This document shows, piece after piece, positions 2,314 through 29,343 of a stretch of DNA of 64,000 nt. A program made the translations under genes and the position numbers. The DNA lies in contig CAYHRK010000001.1 of NCBI GenBank assembly GCA_964358795.1, forward strand, positions 1,432-65,431, in the 5' to 3' direction. The DNA is from an uncultured Vicinamibacterales bacterium (GTDB lineage: Bacteria > Acidobacteriota > Vicinamibacteria > Vicinamibacterales > JAKQTR01). The number at the start of each line of letters is the position of its first letter. The first letter of the stretch is position 1. The notes under the pieces were generated by a model. That model did no database searches. It saw only the letters and a program-made list of their open reading frames with translations, and was not told the DNA's origin.

Positions 2314-4173
2314 TTAGCATATCGCGTCTGGCGCTGTCCCACCGGCCACGCGCAGCACGTGCGCCGCCGCGCGGGCCGCCGCCTGGCCATCGGACCGGAT
2401 GCCGTACCTGGTCAGAAACGCCACGCGCCCTCGATCGAGCGACTCGCGGCGCTCGCCATCAGCCAGCAGGGCGCGCAACGTCGGAACCAGATCTTCGCCG
2501 TCATGCACACCCGCCATGGCCCCGGCGTCGACAAAGGGACTGAGATTGCTCGGCAGTGCCAGACCGAGCGCTGGCACGCCCATCACCATCGCCTCGATGG
2601 CCGCCGTGGAATTGACCGTCACCAGCAAGCGCGCCGCGCGCGTCAAGGCGGCCAGATCGGCCGATCCCGGCGCCACCGTCACGTTGGCAGCGCCGGCAGC
2701 CATGGCCAGGTAAGGCGCGCCGCTTTCGGCCGGATGGCACTTCACCACCACGTGCACGTCGGGCATCGTTGCCACGGCCTCGACCAGACGTCGGAACACC
2801 GGCCGAATCTGCGTGAACTTTGCGGCGACCAGCACCAGATGCTGGCCCGGTCTGGCGCCGGCGATGTGTCGCACGTGCCCGATGTCGTCGCTGGTGAGGC
2901 GGGAGGCGCGTGCGACCAGCGAATCGAGCCTGGCGCTGCCGGTCACCGCTACGGCTTCAGGCGGGAACCCGCCGGCCGTTCTGAGATGCTCGGCCGCGAA
3001 CTCGTCATACAGCAACGTCACGGTTGGATACGGGAAGCCCCTGTCGGCAGGGTTGCCCGGCGACGGCCGCATCTCGTCAGGCTCGTGGAGGTAGTTCAAC
3101 CAGTGGCGGTAGATGAAGCCGTGCTGCAGACCCACTGACGGGATGGCGCGGCGGCGGGCTTCAAGCACCAGCGCTCGCCCCCATCCTCCGGCTTCGGCGT
3201 AGGTCACGACCGCTGCCGGACGCAGCACATCGAGGCTGGCTCCCAGCTGATCCATGACGTACGCGGACCACGGGAACTGCAAATACGCAATGCCGGCCAG
3301 CACGGGTTCGACCAGCGGCCAGACATCGCACTGCCGAATCACGGCCGCGTTGCGGAGAGGCTGGCTGCCGCACAGCGCCGAGAAGACGGACGCCCGGTGC
3401 CGCCAGATCTCCCGCGAGGGACCCACATCGGCCGGGCCCGCGACGTCGTCGATCGGTTCCAGGCGGGCACCTCCAGCGGCGCGTCCGCCGAATTCCGACA
3501 CGCGCTGGCGCCACGTCCGGGCGCGGTAGCTTGTGCGAGGCCCGAGCCCAACCAGCGCCAACTCGCCGGCCGGGAGCGAGGCGAACAACCGATCCAGAAT
3601 CGGCCCGATGTACTGCTCCTCCTCCTCGCGCCAGAAGGCGGCGTGGACAAAACCCGCTATCCTGACGGTGGCACCGCGCGGGCCGTCTGTCCTTTGTCGC
3701 CGTGCCAGCCAGGCCCCAACGCGGTAGGCGCGCGCGCGTCCGACCAGAACCGCCAGGGTCCACCAGCGCGGACGCCGCCCGAACGCGACACCACCACCCC
3801 ACCGAATCCCCTCCCGCGCGGCCACCTGGCGGGCCACAAGCGTCAACGCAACATCGCCGCGTTCGACGGCCAGCCTGGTGGGATGTTCCCGGCTGACGAG
3901 CGCGTCAAGCGCCAGCAACGTCCGGAAGATCCTGTTGATGACCTGGGTCTTGTGCAGGTAGAGCTCGGCGAACCACCAGAGGGAATCGCCACGCAACGTG
4001 AAGCGGTCCCGCAGCACCTGTCCGTCGATCGGGATGGTCCGCAGTGACTTGATCCAGCGATAGGCGGCACGCTCCGCCTGTTCGGCAAGGTCGGCGGTCA
4101 GGTACTCGTGCAACCCCACGCGGCGCGTGCGTCCACCCGCCTCGACGACGATGGCTTCGTCAGACGTCGCCAT
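2314..4173 (-). CDS. Hypothetical 619-aa protein; C-terminal half resembles the nucleotide-sugar-binding half of GT-B-fold capsule/teichoic-type transferases
   Basis: ATG at 4173 overlaps the stop of the upstream GT9 gene by 14 nt. The C-terminal segment VTGSARLDSL...LVLVAAKF...VVVKCHPAE...LLVTVNSTAAIEAMVMGVPAL has a GT-B-like strand/helix pattern. The N-terminal ~350 aa are not recognised. Confidence 0.4.
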   Translation of the reverse strand: MATSDEAIVVEAGGRTRRVGLHEYLTADLAEQAERAAYRWIKSLRTIPIDGQVLRDRFTLRGDSLWWFAELYLHKTQVINRIFRTLLALDALVSREHPTRLAVERGDVALTLVARQVAAREGIRWGGGVAFGRRPRWWTLAVLVGRARAYRVGAWLARRQRTDGPRGATVRIAGFVHAAFWREEEEQYIGPILDRLFASLPAGELALVGLGPRTSYRARTWRQRVSEFGGRAAGGARLEPIDDVAGPADVGPSREIWRHRASVFSALCGSQPLRNAAVIRQCDVWPLVEPVLAGIAYLQFPWSAYVMDQLGASLDVLRPAAVVTYAEAGGWGRALVLEARRRAIPSVGLQHGFIYRHWLNYLHEPDEMRPSPGNPADRGFPYPTVTLLYDEFAAEHLRTAGGFPPEAVAVTGSARLDSLVARASRLTSDDIGHVRHIAGARPGQHLVLVAAKFTQIRPVFRRLVEAVATMPDVHVVVKCHPAESGAPYLAMAAGAANVTVAPGSADLAALTRAARLLVTVNSTAAIEAMVMGVPALGLALPSNLSPFVDAGAMAGVHDGEDLVPTLRALLADGERRESLDRGRVAFLTRYGIRSDGQAAARAAAHVLRVAGGTAPDAIC

Positions 4174-5394: not shown

Positions 5395-7920
5395 CTATTC
5401 GAGACGCACCCGGTCGAGCATCACGCCCAGTGCGCGATCGTCTGAGCCTCCGAACACCACGCTTGGCGTCCACGTGGTGCAGATCAGGCGAATCACCGAC
5501 ACATCCGGCAGTCGCGAAGCCTCGGCGGCGACCTCTGGCGGCACCGCGACCTGGTAGGCGTGAAAGCCTCCTCCGACCACGACCTCGCCGAGCAGGTGAT
5601 CGTTGAACATCACGCGAACCCTGGCGGGGCCGGCCGCTTCGGGTCGTCCCCCGTTGCTCATCCACAGGCGCACCACGCGCGCACTCGCGCCGACGCCCTG
5701 CAGCGTCACGTACGACACATCCCGCGTCCAACGGTAGTTCACCCCGTCGGTTTCTTCTTTGGCGTTGATGCGGTACACCCACAGATCGTCGAACGCGCCG
5801 ACATCGAGATCCGTGACGACCGGGGCGCGTGGTGCCACCGACAAGCGGTACAAGTTCAGGCCAAACTTCTTCTGGCGCACGCTCCGAGGATAGGCGTTGC
5901 GCAGCGACTCGTACTCGGCGATCTGAAAGCGCTGATGGGTGAGGGGTGTGGCCATCAGCGTGGCGGATGCCAGGTCCGTGCCGCCATCCGCCACAAACAG
6001 GACGCGCGTGTAGGTGTGCGTGGCCCACGTCATGAACTGCGCAAAGGTGGCGCGGTTCGGCTTTGGCGTCGACAGCAGCAGCACGTGCTTCGCGTAGATA
6101 TACGCGAGCGGGGTGGCCAGCACGTGTACGTCTGACGAGTTGCGAGGTTCGACAACCAGCAGGTCGCGCTCGCCGATGCGACTGGCCAGCTGCTCGAGTT
6201 GGGGAATCAGGCCGGCGTACTCCACGTGGTGCAGAATGGGCCGTGTCGCGACGGCGAATGACCATCCCGTGGCACCCAGAAGCACCACCGGGAGCACGAT
6301 GCGCCACGCGCCCGCCAGCAGTCGCGCGCCAAGCCCGGCACCGTGCGTGCTGGCGCGAAGACCCGGCAGGAACCCGGAGAGCGCCACCGATGCCATGAAG
6401 AGGCATGTCATCGGCAGCACGAGTGGGATGTAGCGCCGCGCCTGCCAGAAATGCTCGGGCACGATCCGGATCTTGTAGAACAAGAACACCGAGGCCAGGG
6501 CGGTGACCGTCAGCAGAATCGGCGCGCGCCAGAAGTGGCGCCACGACAGCAGGCCAAACCCCACGACGGCGGACGCCAGACCCACACCTCCCACATACCA
6601 GGCGAACACCGGCAGTGCAAAGGCGTCGTGAGCCGCCAGTTTTCCCACCGGTTCCCGCAGAAAGCCGGCATACACGGCGCAGAGCGCGATCGCGGCGGCC
6701 ATCACGCGCGGAATCCACGATTGCGCCCGCTGCACGATCGCGGGACGGCGCGATCGGATGTGGCGTACCACGAACAGCGCGACAACGACGGCGGCAGCAC
6801 CTCCACAGAGCATTCGCCAGCCGCCCAGCTGGAGGAGCGGAATCGCGACGTACATCTTCATCGGTCCCGCGTAGTACGCGGCCGCGATGATGGCCTGCGC
6901 CGCCAGCGGAAGCCAGAATGTCCACCGCACCCGCTTGCCGTCGGCGGTCACCAGCAGGAGGCCCGCCGACACATACGCCAGCACGAGCACGGCGTCGAAC
7001 CGCACAAACAGCAGGGCGCCGAGCAGCAGTCCGGCCACAGGCTCGAAAAACGGATCCTCGTCTTGGTAGGCTCGCCCGAGCGCCAGCAGGGCCACGAAGA
7101 GCAGCGCCTGCTGCATCACCTCCGAATTCGGATAGCGCGCGTACCAGACTTCAGCGACGTTGATGGCCAGCAGCACGCACCCGGCGGCCGCAGGCAGACG
7201 TCCGACGAGCCTCGCACCGGCGAAGTAGAAAGCGACCAGTCCCAGCAGTGCCCAAAAGCCAACCGCGCGCCGAGCTCCAGACAATCCGTCCACACCGTAC
7301 CCAATGGCGATCCAGGCCGGAAACGCGTGTGGAAACTGGCCGATCACCTCGCCGCGGGCACGGTTTGTGACGAAGAACCCCATGAACCGCACGCCTTCGT
7401 ACAACCCTTCGGTGAACCAGTCGAATCCCTCCGTCAGGTACAAACCGCGGAACTGGTTCGGCAGCGCGGCCAGGGTGTCATCGGCAATGCGCAGCGATCC
7501 ACGTTGCGCGATCTGGATCCCTTCGTTCATGTACGTGCCGGGATCCTTGCCGCCCATCACGTACTCGGACGAGGGGAAAAACAGTGACATCCCAAGACCC
7601 ACCAGCGCCACCGGCACAAGCGCCGTCCACTGCGGTTTCGGTGCCGGCGTGCCGAGTCGAAGGTTCCCGCGACCAGCGAGCAGCAGCAGCGCACTGATGC
7701 CAGCGTCGGCTGCGAGTAGTCGTCCGAAGGTATAGGCCCCAGCTGAGGCGAGCCCGAGGGTGACCAGCGTGGTGATGGTCACGCTCAGCACCACGGCCCA
7801 GAACACGCGTTCGTCGGCCGGCAGGGCGGCGCGGCGCAGGCGATTGGCCGTGGGCAGCCGGAAGGCGAGTGCACCCGGCAGGTACGCCACCACCATCAAC
7901 TGAGCAAGTGCCAGGAGCAT
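5395..7920 (-). CDS. Large polytopic membrane protein, probable GT-C-fold glycosyltransferase (ArnT/PMT-like) with ~230-aa C-terminal soluble domain
   Basis: 841 aa with many hydrophobic segments. The first loop, SSEYVMGGKDPGTYMNEGIQIAQRGSL, resembles the acidic loop-1 motif of GT-C enzymes. Sits between the DegT and GT9 genes. Confidence 0.55.
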   Translation of the reverse strand: MLLALAQLMVVAYLPGALAFRLPTANRLRRAALPADERVFWAVVLSVTITTLVTLGLASAGAYTFGRLLAADAGISALLLLAGRGNLRLGTPAPKPQWTALVPVALVGLGMSLFFPSSEYVMGGKDPGTYMNEGIQIAQRGSLRIADDTLAALPNQFRGLYLTEGFDWFTEGLYEGVRFMGFFVTNRARGEVIGQFPHAFPAWIAIGYGVDGLSGARRAVGFWALLGLVAFYFAGARLVGRLPAAAGCVLLAINVAEVWYARYPNSEVMQQALLFVALLALGRAYQDEDPFFEPVAGLLLGALLFVRFDAVLVLAYVSAGLLLVTADGKRVRWTFWLPLAAQAIIAAAYYAGPMKMYVAIPLLQLGGWRMLCGGAAAVVVALFVVRHIRSRRPAIVQRAQSWIPRVMAAAIALCAVYAGFLREPVGKLAAHDAFALPVFAWYVGGVGLASAVVGFGLLSWRHFWRAPILLTVTALASVFLFYKIRIVPEHFWQARRYIPLVLPMTCLFMASVALSGFLPGLRASTHGAGLGARLLAGAWRIVLPVVLLGATGWSFAVATRPILHHVEYAGLIPQLEQLASRIGERDLLVVEPRNSSDVHVLATPLAYIYAKHVLLLSTPKPNRATFAQFMTWATHTYTRVLFVADGGTDLASATLMATPLTHQRFQIAEYESLRNAYPRSVRQKKFGLNLYRLSVAPRAPVVTDLDVGAFDDLWVYRINAKEETDGVNYRWTRDVSYVTLQGVGASARVVRLWMSNGGRPEAAGPARVRVMFNDHLLGEVVVGGGFHAYQVAVPPEVAAEASRLPDVSVIRLICTTWTPSVVFGGSDDRALGVMLDRVRLE

Positions 7921-22209: not shown

Positions 22210-23762
22210 CGCTACGCGACCTCCTCAGCGCGCTCGAGCCGTGCGATACGGACACCGGCACACCCGTCTCGATGGACAGCAGCGCCGTCTGGTCGCAAGA
22301 GGTCGCCGGCGTGGCCTACGATTCTCGAAACGTCAGGCCGGCCACGCTCTTTGTCGGATTGCGGGGCCAGCATGCCGACGGATCGACCTTCGCCGGCCAG
22401 GCCATCGCCAGCGGCGCGATCGCGGTGGTCTCCGAGCAGGCGCCCCCCGCGGCTACCGCCGTCCCATGGGTGCGCGTACGAGACGGGCGGCTGGCGTTGG
22501 CCCGCCTGGCAGCGGGTTTCTACGGTCATCCCAGCCGCGCGATGCAGGTGGTGGGCATCACGGGGACCAACGGCAAGACCACGACCGCGTACCTGGTCCG
22601 CGACGTGCTCGAGGCCGGCGGGCTTCGATGCGGGCTGCTCGGCACCGTGCAGTACCGCATTGGTTCAGAGGTGCGCGAGGCGTCGCGCACGACACCCGAG
22701 GCGGTCGACCTGCAGCAGATGCTGCGCGACATGGCCGACGCCGGCTGCCGCGCCTGCGCGATGGAAGTCTCCTCGCACGCGCTCGCGTTGAGACGGGTGG
22801 ACCAGACCCGGTTTGCCGCCGGCGTCTTCACCAACTTGACGCGCGACCACCTCGATTTCCATCAGGATCTGGAGCGCTACTTCGCCGCCAAACGCCGGTT
22901 GTTCGATCTGCTGCCGCCTGGCGCCCCCGCCATCCTCAATGCCGACGACCCGCGCGTCGCCGCGCTGGCGACCGAACGGTCGGCAGCGATCACGTATGGC
23001 ATCAGTCAGACGGCCGACCTCCGGCCGGTGTCCTTACCCGACTCACTGATGGCCCTGTCGTTCGACGTGCGAACACCGGCCGGCATCTTGGCGATCCGGT
23101 CTCGCCTGGCGGGCCTCTTCAACGTCTACAACCTACTGGCCGCCGCGGCGACGGGCGTCGGCCTGGGTCTGCCGCTTCCCGCGATCGAGGCCGGGCTGGC
23201 GGCCCTCACCGACGTGCCTGGCCGGTTTCAGGTGGTGTCGTCAGCCGGCGATGACATCGCCGTCATCGTCGACTACGCCCACACCGACGATGCCTTGAAA
23301 AACCTGCTGGAGGCGGCGCGGCCGCTGGCCGCCGCTCGGCTGATCACCGTGTTTGGCTGTGGCGGCGACCGCGATCGCACCAAGCGGCCGCTGATGGGTG
23401 CGGTAGCCGCGCGGCTGAGCGACCTGGTGGTGCTGACGTCCGACAATCCACGATCGGAAGATCCGGATCTGATCATCGACGACATCGAACGGGGCATCGC
23501 GCCTGCACCCGATCGAACCCGGCCATCAGCCGGCGCGCCGCCGTCGGCGCGCGACCGGGCAGGCACGCCGCGGTTGCGCGTGACCGATCGGCGGGCGGCG
23601 ATCGCGCGAGCGATCGGTGACGCCGGCACAGGCGATCTGGTGGTGATAGCCGGCAAGGGTCACGAGCAGTCCCAGGTTCTGCGCGATCGGGTGCTGCCGT
23701 TCGACGACGTGGCGGTTGCGCGCGAGGAGCTGTCCCGGCGTCGTGTGGAGGTCGCACGGTGA
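22206..23762 (+). CDS. murE: UDP-N-acetylmuramoyl-L-alanyl-D-glutamate--2,6-diaminopimelate ligase
   Basis: 518 aa from ATG at 22206 (ATGA overlap with the ftsI stop). Motifs GITGTNGKTTT and DNPRSEDP (a DNPR meso-DAP-type determinant). Confidence 0.9.
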   Translation: MTLRDLLSALEPCDTDTGTPVSMDSSAVWSQEVAGVAYDSRNVRPATLFVGLRGQHADGSTFAGQAIASGAIAVVSEQAPPAATAVPWVRVRDGRLALARLAAGFYGHPSRAMQVVGITGTNGKTTTAYLVRDVLEAGGLRCGLLGTVQYRIGSEVREASRTTPEAVDLQQMLRDMADAGCRACAMEVSSHALALRRVDQTRFAAGVFTNLTRDHLDFHQDLERYFAAKRRLFDLLPPGAPAILNADDPRVAALATERSAAITYGISQTADLRPVSLPDSLMALSFDVRTPAGILAIRSRLAGLFNVYNLLAAAATGVGLGLPLPAIEAGLAALTDVPGRFQVVSSAGDDIAVIVDYAHTDDALKNLLEAARPLAAARLITVFGCGGDRDRTKRPLMGAVAARLSDLVVLTSDNPRSEDPDLIIDDIERGIAPAPDRTRPSAGAPPSARDRAGTPRLRVTDRRAAIARAIGDAGTGDLVVIAGKGHEQSQVLRDRVLPFDDVAVAREELSRRRVEVAR

Positions 23763-25171
23763 GCGCCCGTGTAGAACTGACCGCCGCCTCGGTGGCCGCA
23801 GCCATGTCGGGCGCGTTGCTGTCCGGATCGCCATCGGCGCCGATTGGCGACGTCTCGATTGATTCACGCACGCTCGGTCCTGGCAGTCTCTTTGTCGCCA
23901 TTTTGGGCGAGCGGTTCGATGGGCACCGCTTCGTCGGCGCGGCGCTGGGATCGGGCGCCTGCGGTGTGGTGGTGTCGGAGCTGTCGGCGGTGCCGCCCGC
24001 CGCGACACAGACGGCCATCGTGATTCACGTGGCCGACACGACGCGCGCGTTGCAGGCGCTCTCACAATCGGTGCGCCGCAGGTCTGGCGCCAAGGTCGTG
24101 GCTGTCACCGGGAGCGCAGGCAAGACCACGACCAAGGAGGTCGCGGCTGAGTTGCTCGCCACGCGCTACCGGGTGTTCCGGACCAAGGGCAACTTCAATA
24201 ACCACATCGGGCTGCCGTTGTCGCTGCTGGAGTTGCGCGACGGCCCCGACATCGCCGTGGTGGAACTGGGCATGAGCCACGCCGGCGAGATTCGGATGCT
24301 GGTTGGACTGGCCGAGCCAGACGTGCGCGTGTGGACCAACGTCGCCGAGGTGCACGCCGCGTATTTCAGCTCCATCGACGCCATCGCGGACGCGAAGGCC
24401 GAAATCCTGGACGGCGCCACATCCGACACGGTGGTGGTCGCCAACGCCGCCGACGCGCGGGTGATGGTTCGCGTGCGCGGGTGTGCCGCTCGGATCGTGA
24501 CGTTCGGCGTGGAGGTGGACGCCGACGTGTCGGCCAGCGGCGTTGTCGATGCCGGCATCGGAGGCACGACGGCCACCGTGTCCACGCCGGCTGGCCGGGC
24601 CGAATTCCGCGTGCCGCTGGTCGGCCGCGGGCATCTGTCCAACGTCCTGGCGGCGACGGCGGTCGCGCTGCAGTTCGGCGTGCCGATTGAAGACATCGCC
24701 GCGCGAGTCTCCGGGCTCACCCCGGCCCCGCGGCGCGGCGAGGTGTGGCGGCTGCGAGACGACGTGGTGCTCGTCGACGATTCGTACAACTCGAATCCGG
24801 TCGCGCTGGAACGCATGCTCGACGTTCTGGGTGCAAGCGATCTCGCTCGACGCCGTGTGGCCGTGCTGGGCGAGATGCTCGAACTGGGTGCGCAGTCCGT
24901 TGCGTGGCACCAAGCGTGTGGCGCCGCGGCGGCCCGCGCCGGCGTGTCGGTGCTGGTTGCGGTTGGCGGACTGGCGGCGCGGGCCATGGCGACGGCCGCC
25001 ACCGAGGCTGGGATGGATCCGGCCGCCGTTCTGCACGTGGAGACCAGTGAAGAAGCGGCCGCCCATGTCGCGCATCTGCTGCGGGCAGGAGACATCGTGT
25101 TGGTGAAGGGGTCGCGAGCGATCCGTACGGACCTTGTGGCGGACCGGGTGAAAGCAGAACGGGCCTCATGA
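23759..25171 (+). CDS. murF: UDP-N-acetylmuramoyl-tripeptide--D-alanyl-D-alanine ligase
   Basis: 470 aa. GTG start in a GTGA overlap with the murE stop. Motifs VTGSAGKTTTKE and DDSYNSNP. Confidence 0.9.
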   Translation: MSARVELTAASVAAAMSGALLSGSPSAPIGDVSIDSRTLGPGSLFVAILGERFDGHRFVGAALGSGACGVVVSELSAVPPAATQTAIVIHVADTTRALQALSQSVRRRSGAKVVAVTGSAGKTTTKEVAAELLATRYRVFRTKGNFNNHIGLPLSLLELRDGPDIAVVELGMSHAGEIRMLVGLAEPDVRVWTNVAEVHAAYFSSIDAIADAKAEILDGATSDTVVVANAADARVMVRVRGCAARIVTFGVEVDADVSASGVVDAGIGGTTATVSTPAGRAEFRVPLVGRGHLSNVLAATAVALQFGVPIEDIAARVSGLTPAPRRGEVWRLRDDVVLVDDSYNSNPVALERMLDVLGASDLARRRVAVLGEMLELGAQSVAWHQACGAAAARAGVSVLVAVGGLAARAMATAATEAGMDPAAVLHVETSEEAAAHVAHLLRAGDIVLVKGSRAIRTDLVADRVKAERAS

Positions 25172-25196
25172 GGACGGCGTGCAGGAGCCAATCGGC

Positions 25197-26585
25197 ATGA
25201 GCGAGTTCAGCGTGCGTGGAACGCGAGTCGTGGTGGTGGGCGGCGCCGCCAGCGGCACGGCCGCCGCCCGCCTGCTCGCCGAGCGCGGCGCGCGCGTCAC
25301 GCTGACGGACGTGCGGCCGGCCATCGACGGCCAGGATGCCCTGCGGCTGATCGGCGTCGATCTGGTGCTTGGCGCCAATCCGCCCGACCTGTTAGCCCAC
25401 GCCGGTCTGGTGATCGTGAGCCCCGGAGTGCCCCTCACACACCCGGCCATCCAAGCCGCCCGACAGTGCGGCGTGCCCGTGCTGGGCGAAATCGAACTGG
25501 CATCACGCTGGCTTCGAGGCCGCATGGTGGCGATTACCGGGACCAAGGGGAAATCGACGACGACCGCCTTGACGGGTCGCATCCTGGCGCAGGCCGGATT
25601 CGACGCACCAGTTGGCGGCAACATCGGCACGCCGCTGTCGTCGTACGTGAGCGCCTCTCGCCCCGACACGATCCACGTGGTGGAGGTGAGCAGCTTCCAA
25701 CTGGAAACGACCGACACGTTTCACCCCTGGATTGCGGCGCTGCTCAATGTGACGGCCGACCATCTCGACCGTTACGCGAATCTGCAGGAGTACGCGCGTG
25801 CCAAGGCCCGAATCTTTGCACAGCAGACCGAAGCGGACTGGGCCGTAGTGAATGCCGACGATCCGCAGACGCTGGCCCTGGCCAGCCAGGGGCGCGCACG
25901 GCAGACCGCCTTTGCCAGACATGCCGCGATCGACGCCGGCGTCACGGTCGATCACGATTGGGTCGTGGAGGTGGCCGGTGGCACATCGACGCATCTGGTG
26001 CACACATCGGATGTGCGCCTGATCGGACAGCACCTGTTGTCGGATGTGCTGGCGGCGGCCGCCATCGCGCGGCTGGCCGGGGTGTCTGCCGAGGCGATCG
26101 CGCAGGCCGTCTCGTCGTTTCGCGGCCTCGAACACGCCATGGAATGGGTGGACGACATCCGCGGCGTGCGGTTCGTGAACGACTCGAAGGCCACCAACGT
26201 GGACGCGGCGGCGCAGGCGATTGAGACGTTCGAGCCAGGGCTGGTGGTGATCATGGGCGGCAAGTTCAAGGGGGGCGACCTGCGCACGCTTCGACCGCGC
26301 CTGGCGTCGCGGATGGCCACGGTGGTCGCGATTGGAGAAGCCCGGCCACTGATTCACGACGCCTTTGACGGCGGTGTGACGGTGGTCGACGCCACCACGA
26401 TGGCCGACGCCGTGCGGGCCGCCTTCGCCGCGGCGTCGCCTGGTGCCAGCGTACTGCTGGCCCCGGCGTGCGCCAGTTTCGACATGTTCGAGAACTACGC
26501 GGCGCGCGGCCTGGCGTTCAAGGCAGAGGTGGCGCGGCTGCGGGTGGAGCGTGGAGAGGGAGGCCGCATCGTGACAACGGCGTGA
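25197..26585 (+). CDS. murD: UDP-N-acetylmuramoylalanine--D-glutamate ligase
   Basis: ATG at 25197 preceded by GGAG (25183-25186); the track start is GTG at 25179. Motifs VVVGGAASGTAAARLL and ITGTKGKSTTTAL. Follows murF directly, with no mraY between them. Confidence 0.9.
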   Translation: MSEFSVRGTRVVVVGGAASGTAAARLLAERGARVTLTDVRPAIDGQDALRLIGVDLVLGANPPDLLAHAGLVIVSPGVPLTHPAIQAARQCGVPVLGEIELASRWLRGRMVAITGTKGKSTTTALTGRILAQAGFDAPVGGNIGTPLSSYVSASRPDTIHVVEVSSFQLETTDTFHPWIAALLNVTADHLDRYANLQEYARAKARIFAQQTEADWAVVNADDPQTLALASQGRARQTAFARHAAIDAGVTVDHDWVVEVAGGTSTHLVHTSDVRLIGQHLLSDVLAAAAIARLAGVSAEAIAQAVSSFRGLEHAMEWVDDIRGVRFVNDSKATNVDAAAQAIETFEPGLVVIMGGKFKGGDLRTLRPRLASRMATVVAIGEARPLIHDAFDGGVTVVDATTMADAVRAAFAAASPGASVLLAPACASFDMFENYAARGLAFKAEVARLRVERGEGGRIVTTA

Positions 26586-26709
26586 GCCGTGAGCAGTCGT
26601 CAGTCGGCTCAAGACGGCATGGAACTGGCTGCTGGGAACCCGCGCCGCCCCGGCGCGGGAAGCTGGTGTCCGTGCCTCTCGGGCTGACTGATGACTGCTG
26701 ACGGCTCAC
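26582..26709. repeat. 128-bp element bounded by a 27/28-bp near-perfect inverted repeat, enclosing a 9-bp GC hairpin
   Basis: Left arm GTGAGCCGTGAGCAGTCGTCAGTCGGC (26582-26608). The reverse complement of the right arm (26682-26709) is GTGAGCCGTCAGCAGTCATCAGTCAGCC. As plus-strand RNA this gives 24 Watson-Crick pairs, 2 G-U pairs and 1 mismatch. Inner hairpin CCCGCGCCG/CGGCGCGGG at 26639-26659. Confidence 0.8.
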
Positions 26710-26713
26710 ACCC

Positions 26714-26787
26714 GGACCTCCAACAGAGGTCCAGGTCGCTGACGCCTCTAGAGTTGTCGGCAGCAGCGGGCTAAGACTGTAGCCCGC
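26714..26787 (+). other. Two further short stem-loops in the murD-ftsW spacer
   Basis: GGACCTC-caaca-GAGGTCC at 26714-26732. GCGGGCT-aagactgt-AGCCCGC at 26766-26787, ending 11 nt before the ftsW ATG. Confidence 0.6.
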
Positions 26788-26798
26788 AGGTAGGGACG

Positions 26799-27902
26799 AT
26801 GGCAAGGAAACTGAAGTCGGATCGCGTGCTGTTCTTCACCACGATTGGCCTGGTCGCCACCAGCGTCGTGATGGTCTATAGCGCGTCGAACGTGGTGGCG
26901 CTGGATCAGTACGGCCGGCCCAGCTGGTTTCTGGTCAAACAATGTGTCTTCGCCTGCCTGGGTCTGGCGGCCATGGCGCTGGCCATGCACGTCAACTACC
27001 GCGTGTATAAGCTGCCGGCGGTTCTCAAGCCGCTGCTGGTTGTCACATTGCTGGCGCTGGTGGGCGTGCTCTTCCTGGGTCCGAGGATCAACAACACGCA
27101 CCGATGGTATGTCGTGGCGGGTATCAGCCTGCAACCGTCGGAACTGGCCAAGCTGGCGACGGCGATCTTCGCCGCCTTCATGCTCGAACGCCGCATGGAT
27201 CGCATCGACAGCATCCGCCAGACCCTGCTGCCCATCGGGATCCCGCTCATCATCGTCATTGCCCTGATCACGAGCCAGCCGGACTTCGGCAGCGCATTGG
27301 CCGTGCTGGCCATCGTAGGCGTGATGATGTTCGCCGCCGGCCTCTCGTACCGGTACCTGGCGGGAATCGTCCTCTGCACGATCCCGCTGGTGACAGCGCT
27401 GGTGCTCTATGAGCCGTACCGGCTACGCCGGTGGACCGCGTTCTGGAATCCCGAACTGGATCCGCGCGGGGACAGCTTCCAGGTGATGCAATCGCTCATC
27501 GCCGTGGGGACCGGCGGCGTGACAGGCCGCGGTCTGAGTGAAGGCGTGCAGAAACTGTGGTACCTGCCGTACGCACACACGGACTTCATCTATGCCGTCA
27601 TTGCGGAGGAACTGGGCCTGATCGGTGCGACCGTCGTGCTGTTGTGCTTTTGTGTGATTGCCTGGCGCGGTCTTCGCATCGCGTCGCATGCGCCAGACGC
27701 CTTCGCCTCGCTGCTCGCGTTGGGGCTGACGGTGATGGTCGCGCTGCAGGCGTTTGTGAACATCAGCGTGGTGCTGGGTCTGGTGCCGACCAAGGGCATT
27801 CCGCTGCCATTTGTCAGTGCCGGAGGGTCGTCGCTCGTCGCGAGCCTGTTCGGCATGGGCATGCTGCTCAATATTTCGCAGCACGCTTCGGCGGAAGGCT
27901 GA
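26799..27902 (+). CDS. ftsW: Peptidoglycan glycosyltransferase FtsW (SEDS family)
   Basis: 367 aa, polytopic. Motifs SLQPSELAKL, SQPDFGSAL, LPYAHTDFIYAVIAEELG, KGIPLPFVSAGGSS. Confidence 0.9.
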   Translation: MARKLKSDRVLFFTTIGLVATSVVMVYSASNVVALDQYGRPSWFLVKQCVFACLGLAAMALAMHVNYRVYKLPAVLKPLLVVTLLALVGVLFLGPRINNTHRWYVVAGISLQPSELAKLATAIFAAFMLERRMDRIDSIRQTLLPIGIPLIIVIALITSQPDFGSALAVLAIVGVMMFAAGLSYRYLAGIVLCTIPLVTALVLYEPYRLRRWTAFWNPELDPRGDSFQVMQSLIAVGTGGVTGRGLSEGVQKLWYLPYAHTDFIYAVIAEELGLIGATVVLLCFCVIAWRGLRIASHAPDAFASLLALGLTVMVALQAFVNISVVLGLVPTKGIPLPFVSAGGSSLVASLFGMGMLLNISQHASAEG

Positions 27903-27912
27903 GGCGCCATCG

Positions 27913-29343
<1,431 letters not shown>

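Follow-up and report, generated by a model that had tools for sequence, protein, structure and literature searches.

The cluster of division and cell wall genes (the dcw cluster) is among the most conserved bacterial operons, and to our knowledge almost all that is understood of how it is regulated internally concerns promoters and a handful of RNase E sites in model organisms. RNase III-processed intercistronic stem-loops are exemplified by the rpsO-pnp and rnc leaders of Escherichia coli and by R1.1 of phage T7, and the known RNase III sites are recognised mainly by shape. Intercistronic stabiliser hairpins are found in the Rhodobacter puf operon and, as a repetitive extragenic palindromic (REP) element, between malE and malF of E. 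coli. EAR (eps-associated RNA), found in Bacillales, is a processive antitermination element that acts inside operons, and Actinobacteria have the mraW RNA motif, an Rfam family at the dcw cluster. UpsM is a small RNA (sRNA) derived from the 5' leader of the Rhodobacteraceae dcw cluster (PMC5089854). Here we analyse the murD-ftsW junction in a 64-kb stretch of DNA (the window; contig CAYHRK010000001.1) from an uncultured Vicinamibacterales bacterium, which holds a high-GC dcw cluster and whose sequence is found identically on the Hainich groundwater metagenome contig ERZ1292640. We found that positions 26582-26709 of the window, between murD and ftsW, encode a member of a conserved, apparently undescribed structured RNA family.

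The murD-ftsW spacer is 213 nt long and lies between the murD TGA (26583-26585) and the ftsW ATG at 26799, while all other dcw junctions of the window are 64 nt or shorter, as the preliminary description of this locus had noted. The fold is far beyond chance. On the plus strand the minimum free energy (MFE) is -147.1 kcal/mol compared with -101.2 +/- 4.9 kcal/mol for shuffled sequences (z = -9.4), and none of 200 shuffles folded as well, so that the folding test proposed in the preliminary description came out clearly positive. The minus strand reaches -128.3 kcal/mol (z = -7.4), 19 kcal/mol less favourable than the plus strand, and the covariance model (CM) R1 scores the element at 132.8 bits on the plus strand versus 57.1 bits on the minus strand. 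The parts of the element and the two genes that flank it are as follows.

26582-26709, plus strand: whole conserved structured RNA, 128 nt; the CM match spans 26577-26714
26582-26608, plus strand: 5' arm of the basal stem P1, four tandem heptamers GTGAGCC GTGAGCA GTCGTCA GTCGGC
26683-26709, plus strand: 3' arm of P1, GCTGAC TGATGAC TGCTGAC GGCTCAC, the inverted counterpart of the 5' arm
26614-26630, plus strand: 5' strand of P2/P3, pairing with 26661-26677; variable in sequence, with strong covariation
26661-26677, plus strand: 3' strand of P2/P3, pairing with 26614-26630
26631-26638, plus strand: 8x1 internal loop GCUGGGAA, facing a single bulged A at 26660
26639-26659, plus strand: P4 hairpin with a C-rich apical loop at 26646-26652, consensus GCCCCGG
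25179-26585, plus strand: murD open reading frame (ORF), with its stop TGA at 26583-26585 inside the 5' arm of P1
26799-27902, plus strand: ftsW, 367 aa, the gene downstream of the element

The basal stem agrees with its first account: pairing of the arms 26582-26608 and 26683-26709 extends over 27 positions and includes one mismatch (G.G at 26591/26700) and two G-U pairs (26599/26692 and 26606/26685), the murD TGA is located inside the left arm, and the 9-bp GC hairpin within the enclosed region is present (26639-26647/26651-26659). That region had been taken for a 73-nt loop. It is in fact nearly all paired through P2/P3 and P4, and the unit is therefore one rod-like hairpin. The 3' arm of P1 contains UGA in all three frames (starting at 26685, 26689, 26692 and 26699) and the 5' arm contains it in two.

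Covariation was assessed in two alignments. The first, A3, is a MAFFT alignment of 77 distinct elements from an arm scan, in which a degenerate 20-mer of the arm was matched against one genome per species (185,579 species) and found in at least 120 stretches; its RNAalifold consensus has 50 pairs. Since the arm scan selects conserved arms, we also used an RNA-blind sample of 80 metagenome loci chosen by FtsW protein alignment alone, and 23 sequences from this sample make up the second alignment, A5, with 47 pairs. The cells under the consensus pairs were paired in 95.4% of cases in A3 and 94.1% in A5, compared with 85.9% and 84.9% after shuffling and only 29-45% and 28-45% when the partners were slid by 1-3 columns. 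Changes on both sides occurred at 31 of the 50 pairs in A3 and at 26 of the 47 in A5, and none of the 500 shuffles of either alignment matched any observed measure. The compensatory changes that the preliminary description had proposed to look for are thus strong in both alignments.

The individual pairs in A3 include exchanges such as U-A (38) for C-G (37), A-U (38) for G-C (34), and G-C (44) for C-G (23) or A-U (8). In the same alignment, both-sided changes are found at 15 of the 16 pairs of P2/P3, and P4 is 99.7% paired with 6 of 8 pairs covarying. Even in P1, 9 of 24 pairs covary in A5 (for example C-G 17 and U-A 6). Under the consensus structure, G-U cells outnumber A-C cells by 486 to 66 in A3 and by 130 to 16 in A5, about 7:1, and this excess indicates that the folded molecule is the plus strand, in the same sense as murD and ftsW.

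In addition to pairing, the sequence itself is conserved in parts of the element. P1 is near-invariant clade-wide, the RNA-blind sample included, with the 5' arm consensus GTGAGCN GTGAGCA GTCGTCA GTCGGC; its substitutions in A3 and A5 are compensatory or of the G-U type, and some lineages in A5 have a closed G-C or C-G pair in place of the G.G mismatch. The internal loop GCUGGGAA, which is unpaired in the consensus structure, has an invariant CTGGG core, and its flanking loop positions are at least 90% conserved in both alignments. A k-turn at this loop was rejected by inspection, as the required register clashes with an invariant C-G pair and the adjacent covarying pair. A small ORF across the element was also rejected: no frame is consistently open on either strand, and the element lengths are spread evenly over the three classes modulo 3.

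No Rfam 15 family matched the element at its gathering threshold, and only one match had an E of 10 or less: MIR8622, a plant miRNA precursor, scored 38 bits where its gathering threshold is 197, which is a generic long-hairpin chance match. We found no published description of the motif in the full-text literature. The preliminary description had suggested, as one option, an unrecognised cis-regulatory RNA. The part of this suggestion that concerns a conserved structured RNA in the mRNA sense stands, given the covariation, the G-U excess and the lack of an Rfam family; the regulatory part is a matter of probability and is weighed below.

At least about 80 of the arm-scan matches listed are stretches of Acidobacteriota metagenome-assembled genomes (MAGs), species-level genomes that carry the element at murD-ftsW, and the MurD and FtsW homologues flanking it are 45-70% identical to those of the window. 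The class and order names among the carriers listed are Vicinamibacteria, Vicinamibacterales, Luteitalea or 'gp6'. As a family, the RNA is restricted to a single Acidobacteriota clade, and every carrier named to class or order belongs to Vicinamibacteria. Among the 120 matches listed there is one locus per genome, contigs of 4-6 Mb included (L035, L046, L089, L105), and the sole exception to one stretch per genome, L019/L064, is a single locus split across two contig ends. The other arm matches listed, in Cyanobacteria, Chitinophagaceae, Planctomycetota and others, either cover one arm alone or reach no more than 36 bits, and MurD and FtsW are not their neighbours; these matches outside Acidobacteriota look like simple heptamer repeats, the cyanobacterial ones probably being of the STRR type. 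Viral contigs yielded one chance match to the arm pattern that is not the element. A second copy in the 64-kb window was found neither with the arm pattern (up to 3 mismatches) nor with the CM, whose next match scored 18.9 bits (E = 0.35).

A CM built from the arm-scan set was then run on the RNA-blind loci. All 24 loci whose FtsW is at least 55% identical to that of the window carry the element directly upstream of ftsW, 20 of them at full length (83-136 bits) and 4 cut by a contig end, whereas this search found it in none of the 56 loci with an FtsW at most 52% identical. The outgroup Acidobacteriota junctions are mostly tight, being 2-12 nt long or overlapping (a few are mraY-ftsW instead of murD-ftsW), which indicates that the element module is a clade-specific insertion into the operon. 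The element is a fixed, clade-specific insertion, the opposite of the mobile-repeat pattern.

Two further observations concern the metagenomic material. Nine MAGs labelled Bifidobacteriaceae, Bifidobacterium breve, Acidimicrobiia or Betaproteobacteria (L010, L042, L050, L071, L083, L091, L093, L106, L125) have high-GC dcw loci with the element, and their MurD and/or FtsW are ~53-65% identical to those of the window; these bins are probably mislabelled or contaminated. Contigs start or end inside the element at L019/L064, L091, L126, L129, L136 and L141, in three cases where the 3' arm starts, and this most likely reflects an assembly break at the inverted repeat, not biology.

Within the operon, the element is anchored to the end of murD. 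Among the 77 loci with a determinable murD stop, 42 have as their stop the TGA in one of the first two GTGAGC heptamers of the 5' arm, and 8 more have it at most 10 nt from P1; in the others it can be as far as 207 nt upstream. How far the element stands from ftsW varies, from 37 to ~240 nt (44-246 nt from the arm core to the ATG), and other hairpins and repeats are inserted between the element and ftsW in carriers. The nucleotides just 5' of P1 are not conserved, and P1 is followed by ACCCGG in the window and by GGCGATC or AGTGTTTCGG in relatives. No terminator-like site was found in 26300-27000, and the element, which no U-tract follows, does not have the form of an intrinsic terminator. With no conserved promoter before it and no U-tract after it, the RNA is most simply part of the transcript that runs through murD.

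Two copies of the RNA are located outside the dcw cluster, at L032 (229-360) and L070 (5619-5747, minus strand). The former lies where its contig begins, and a 904-aa ORF other than FtsW comes after it; the latter adjoins tRNA-Arg and tRNA-Lys genes. Their P1 is a variant that also occurs in the dcw copy of L072. Each has an altered apical loop, a lower score (108-112 bits) and a GATC-N-TAG piece retained after P1, and in both the bipartite motif described below is missing. As to the gene content of the cluster, the dcw cluster of the window (23759-29343) and those of its closest relatives L002, L054, L016, L060 and L098 are without mraY (murD comes directly after murF) and without murG (murC comes directly after ftsW), and neither gene was found anywhere in the 64-kb window. 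The more distant carriers L003, L004, L066 and L067 have both mraY and murG at the canonical places.

Downstream of the RNA, the spacer contains three further features.

26710-26736, plus strand: first downstream hairpin, 26710-26720 / 26726-26736, 11 nt, 91%, directly 3' of P1
26766-26787, plus strand: second downstream hairpin, 26766-26773 / 26780-26787, 8 bp, ending 11 nt before the ftsW ATG
26753-26783, strand not assigned: bipartite DNA motif, TTGTCGG at 26753-26759, a 17-nt gap, CTGTAGC at 26777-26783

The two hairpins had been listed in the preliminary description as further stem-loops of a structured spacer. Both are present, but neither belongs to the conserved RNA. Counterparts of the first are, by eye, found only in the subclade of the window (CCCGG...CCGGG in L054, L087, L060, L098 and L121), and its position holds the GATC-N-TAG piece in other lineages. 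Only the window and L002, its 95% relative, show the second hairpin, which shares sequence with the second block of the bipartite motif. The bipartite motif itself, with the clade consensus tGTkTCGG-N16-CTkTAGgg (TGTTTCGG-N16-CTTTAGGG), lies between the RNA and ftsW in almost all carriers (~65 related loci), and its spacing is fixed in 59 unique loci. It has a single match in the 64-kb window and, across 1.3 Mb of collected loci, occurs only at the murD-ftsW junction, and with these counts a general promoter consensus was rejected. RNAalifold gave no consensus RNA structure for it on either strand. A pseudoknot between the internal or apical loop of the RNA and this motif was rejected by inspection, because the UUUCGG pairing needs three wobbles and fails in the window variant GUUGUCGG.

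In its behaviour the bipartite motif resembles a site at the DNA level whose geometry is that of a promoter. If read on the plus strand, it might serve as a promoter of ftsW, at times only 2-8 nt before the ATG. An argument for a plus-strand promoter with leaderless or leadered classes, drawn from a 9-13 nt gap in the motif-ATG distances of the genome sample, was dropped, as that gap is filled by distances of 9, 10, 10 and 10 in the metagenome sample. The sigma-28 (FliA/WhiG) promoter consensus is TAAA(G)-N15-GCCGATAA, also given as TAAAG-N15-CCGATAA. On the minus strand the motif reads cc(C/A)TA(A/C)AG-N16-CCGA(A/C)ACA and resembles this consensus: the core letters agree, and the spacer is 1 nt longer. 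The blocks, 23 nt apart, further resemble a direct repeat with the unit TKT(C/A)GG. Elsewhere in these spacers, extra palindromes with A/U tracts (AAAAGGTGCC..GGCACCTTTT) are found in L009 (~5616-5700) and in L052 (downstream of the bipartite motif), and these look like bidirectional terminators or another small repeat. In nine outgroup Acidobacteriota loci with long murD-ftsW spacers (L158, L159, L160, L167, L168, L183, L187, L190, L199) a common CCGTGGTGAAATGAA stands just before the ftsW ATG, most of them also having a GGAACC...GTTA piece upstream; this sequence is possibly an independent ftsW leader or promoter internal to the operon, in another class.

As for function, the element probably controls the expression of the two halves of the cell-division operon. 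We tentatively favour, at somewhat less than even confidence, a cis-acting intercistronic element that would end, process or stabilise the upstream mur message and insulate it from ftsW. The RNA would be made within the mraZ-to-murD message, where its long double-stranded RNA (dsRNA) stem would block 3' exonucleases and provide RNase III, or some other dsRNA-binding protein, with a site; the specificity of that partner would come from the conserved loops. ftsW and the later genes would then be expressed separately, either from the processed transcript or from the downstream promoter-like motif, and the net effect would be that the amounts of the upstream Mur enzymes are uncoupled from FtsW. 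RNase III cleavage of P1, which the preliminary description had raised, is plausible on this model: with its 27 positions, one G.G and two G-U, P1 is longer than the 20 bp, about two helical turns of dsRNA, that is the minimum for RNase III.

Several points weigh against this function in cis. A plain RNase III site or stabiliser needs neither a near-invariant stem sequence nor conserved loops, and these two features together imply a sequence-specific partner, be it a protein, an RNA or a ligand. The displaced copies in L032 and L070 indicate that the RNA can persist without murD and ftsW, which fits a trans-acting RNA at least equally well. The motif-ATG distances give no orientation for the downstream motif, since the gap in one sample is filled in the second, and the mechanism as a whole is one that we infer.

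A trans-acting sRNA of ~100-130 nt, processed from the murD 3' untranslated region (UTR) or the operon and using the loops GCUGGGAA and GCCCCGG as seeds or protein sites, is in our view a less probable function, though one with several points in its favour. C-rich loops serve as seeds in known sRNAs, and the element is placed directly after a stop codon, as are 3'-UTR-derived sRNAs. Its primary sequence is conserved beyond structural need, but this conserved sequence is mostly locked in helix. Copies outside the dcw cluster (L032, L070) would suit a molecule that acts in trans, but with their altered apical loops and scores of 108-112 bits they may be decaying duplicates. UpsM is an earlier case in which a dcw transcript gives rise to a family-specific sRNA (PMC5089854). 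However, the complement of the internal loop was not found elsewhere in the 64-kb window, and neither a terminator nor a promoter of its own is visible at the element.

We consider it quite unlikely that the element is a ligand- or protein-responsive switch, that is, a riboswitch-like element or an autoregulatory operator that tunes ftsW and the downstream dcw genes, for example to a peptidoglycan precursor or a division protein. Such a switch would account for the conserved unpaired nucleotides in the asymmetric internal loop and for the conserved apical loop flanked by covarying helices. The element stands after a gene for precursor synthesis and before that of the septal peptidoglycan polymerase, and it is present in every clade member sampled, as could be expected of a switch. 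Nevertheless, the RNA is a single rod-like hairpin that lacks a multi-helix junction. We found neither an alternative pairing nor an expression platform that is conserved, and the ftsW start lies at distances that differ by 200 nt, with other elements inserted between. A riboswitch-like pairing through the repeated GCTGACGGCTC / GCTGACGCCTC was tried and rejected, GCTGACGCCTC (26738-26748) not being seen in spacers beyond those of the window and L002.

More speculatively, the RNA might sense a partner (a peptidoglycan-precursor metabolite or a dedicated RNA-binding protein), or be released as a ~100-nt sRNA, and in this way couple the cytoplasmic synthesis of cell-wall precursors, by murD and the genes before it, to the expression of the septal polymerase FtsW in Vicinamibacteria. 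We hold this to be improbable; if true, it would be the first riboregulator inside a dcw operon.

That the palindrome acts at the DNA level, as a protein site or cruciform such as an operator for the adjacent promoter-like motif, is very unlikely. The arm sequence is indeed near-invariant and in some genomes comes down to 4 nt from the bipartite motif, as a DNA site might. Pairing is preserved on one strand only, however, as the ratio of G-U to A-C of ~7:1 indicates, and the interior helices covary freely in sequence, which is not required of a DNA site.

A selfish palindromic repeat, a miniature inverted-repeat transposable element (MITE) or REP-like insertion sitting here without a function of its own, had been offered as an alternative in the preliminary description and has next to no probability left: its terminal inverted arms are made of tandem heptamers, a related heptamer palindrome without the apical domain interrupts a thiL-like ORF in L090 and further heptamer-repeat tracts occur in these spacers, but the element is single-copy in the 64 kb, no listed genome has more than the one locus (the locus split over two contigs apart), the same junction is fixed across organisms with FtsW only 55-66% identical, the substitutions are compensatory, no target-site duplication is found (the flanks are ACGGC at 26577-26581 and ACCCG at 26710-26714), and the element is absent from viral contigs. 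Nor did we encounter presence/absence polymorphism: of the 24 RNA-blind loci whose FtsW is 55% or more identical, all have the same junction occupied. Arms built of heptamers, together with the related L090 palindrome, leave room for a repeat in the history of the element, in that the P1 stem may be derived from a heptamer-repeat palindrome.

The L090 palindrome belongs to another Acidobacteriota MAG (3778-3935) and consists of ~150 nt of CAGTCNN heptamers within the thiL-like ORF, flanked by ...GLALMRQG and YLYPSPRV.... It resembles P1 in its arms, is without the apical domain and scores 48.7 bits with the CM; it looks like a heptamer-repeat insertion into a coding region. Tandem heptamers are also common in the murD-ftsW spacers, for example a GTTGTCG/GTTGTCA palindrome in L081, GGCAGGT in L100 and L038, and GGGGGCA in L109.

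In an entire class of soil and groundwater bacteria, abundant yet scarcely cultured, a 128-nt RNA and a conserved promoter-like motif have been inserted at a murD-ftsW junction that is normally tight. If the RNA sets the ratio of the Mur enzymes to FtsW, it would constitute a new post-transcriptional control point for cell division. It is also a new entry for RNA family databases and a case of a helix that is conserved in sequence and not in pairing alone. Orphan RNA motifs are not rare, but the features of the murD-ftsW element are unusual and the operon is essential.

Compared with the known systems, the element is a conserved structured RNA inside an operon, which is a known kind, while the family itself is apparently undescribed. 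The MITEs, REP/BIME, ERIC and Correia repeats resemble it in their ~27-nt inverted terminal arms, their size of 100-150 nt, their intergenic location and their arms of short tandem repeats; the element differs from them in having one locus per listed genome, no target-site duplication, one junction kept across deep divergence and RNA-type covariation. EAR is likewise a conserved structured RNA between genes within a long operon and not in a 5' UTR, yet it has no homology with the element.

By analogy, the element is functionally nearest to the RNase III-processed stems and the stabiliser hairpins, and nearest by location to UpsM and the mraW motif. UpsM and the mraW motif are, like the element, lineage-restricted structured RNAs attached to the dcw transcript. 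Both of these stand at the cluster's 5' end, upstream of mraZ or mraW; the element is internal, at murD-ftsW, and has no sequence or structure homology with them. With the stabiliser hairpins the element shares a very stable hairpin right after the upstream stop codon, which could protect the message from 3' exonucleases and give differential expression; unlike REP, it is single-copy and locus-specific, and it is much longer and has conserved unpaired nucleotides. With the RNase III-processed stems it shares an uninterrupted dsRNA stem of more than 20 bp in an operon transcript, between cistrons needed in different amounts, and it differs from them in that its stem sequence is conserved class-wide and that it has a covarying apical domain and conserved loops.

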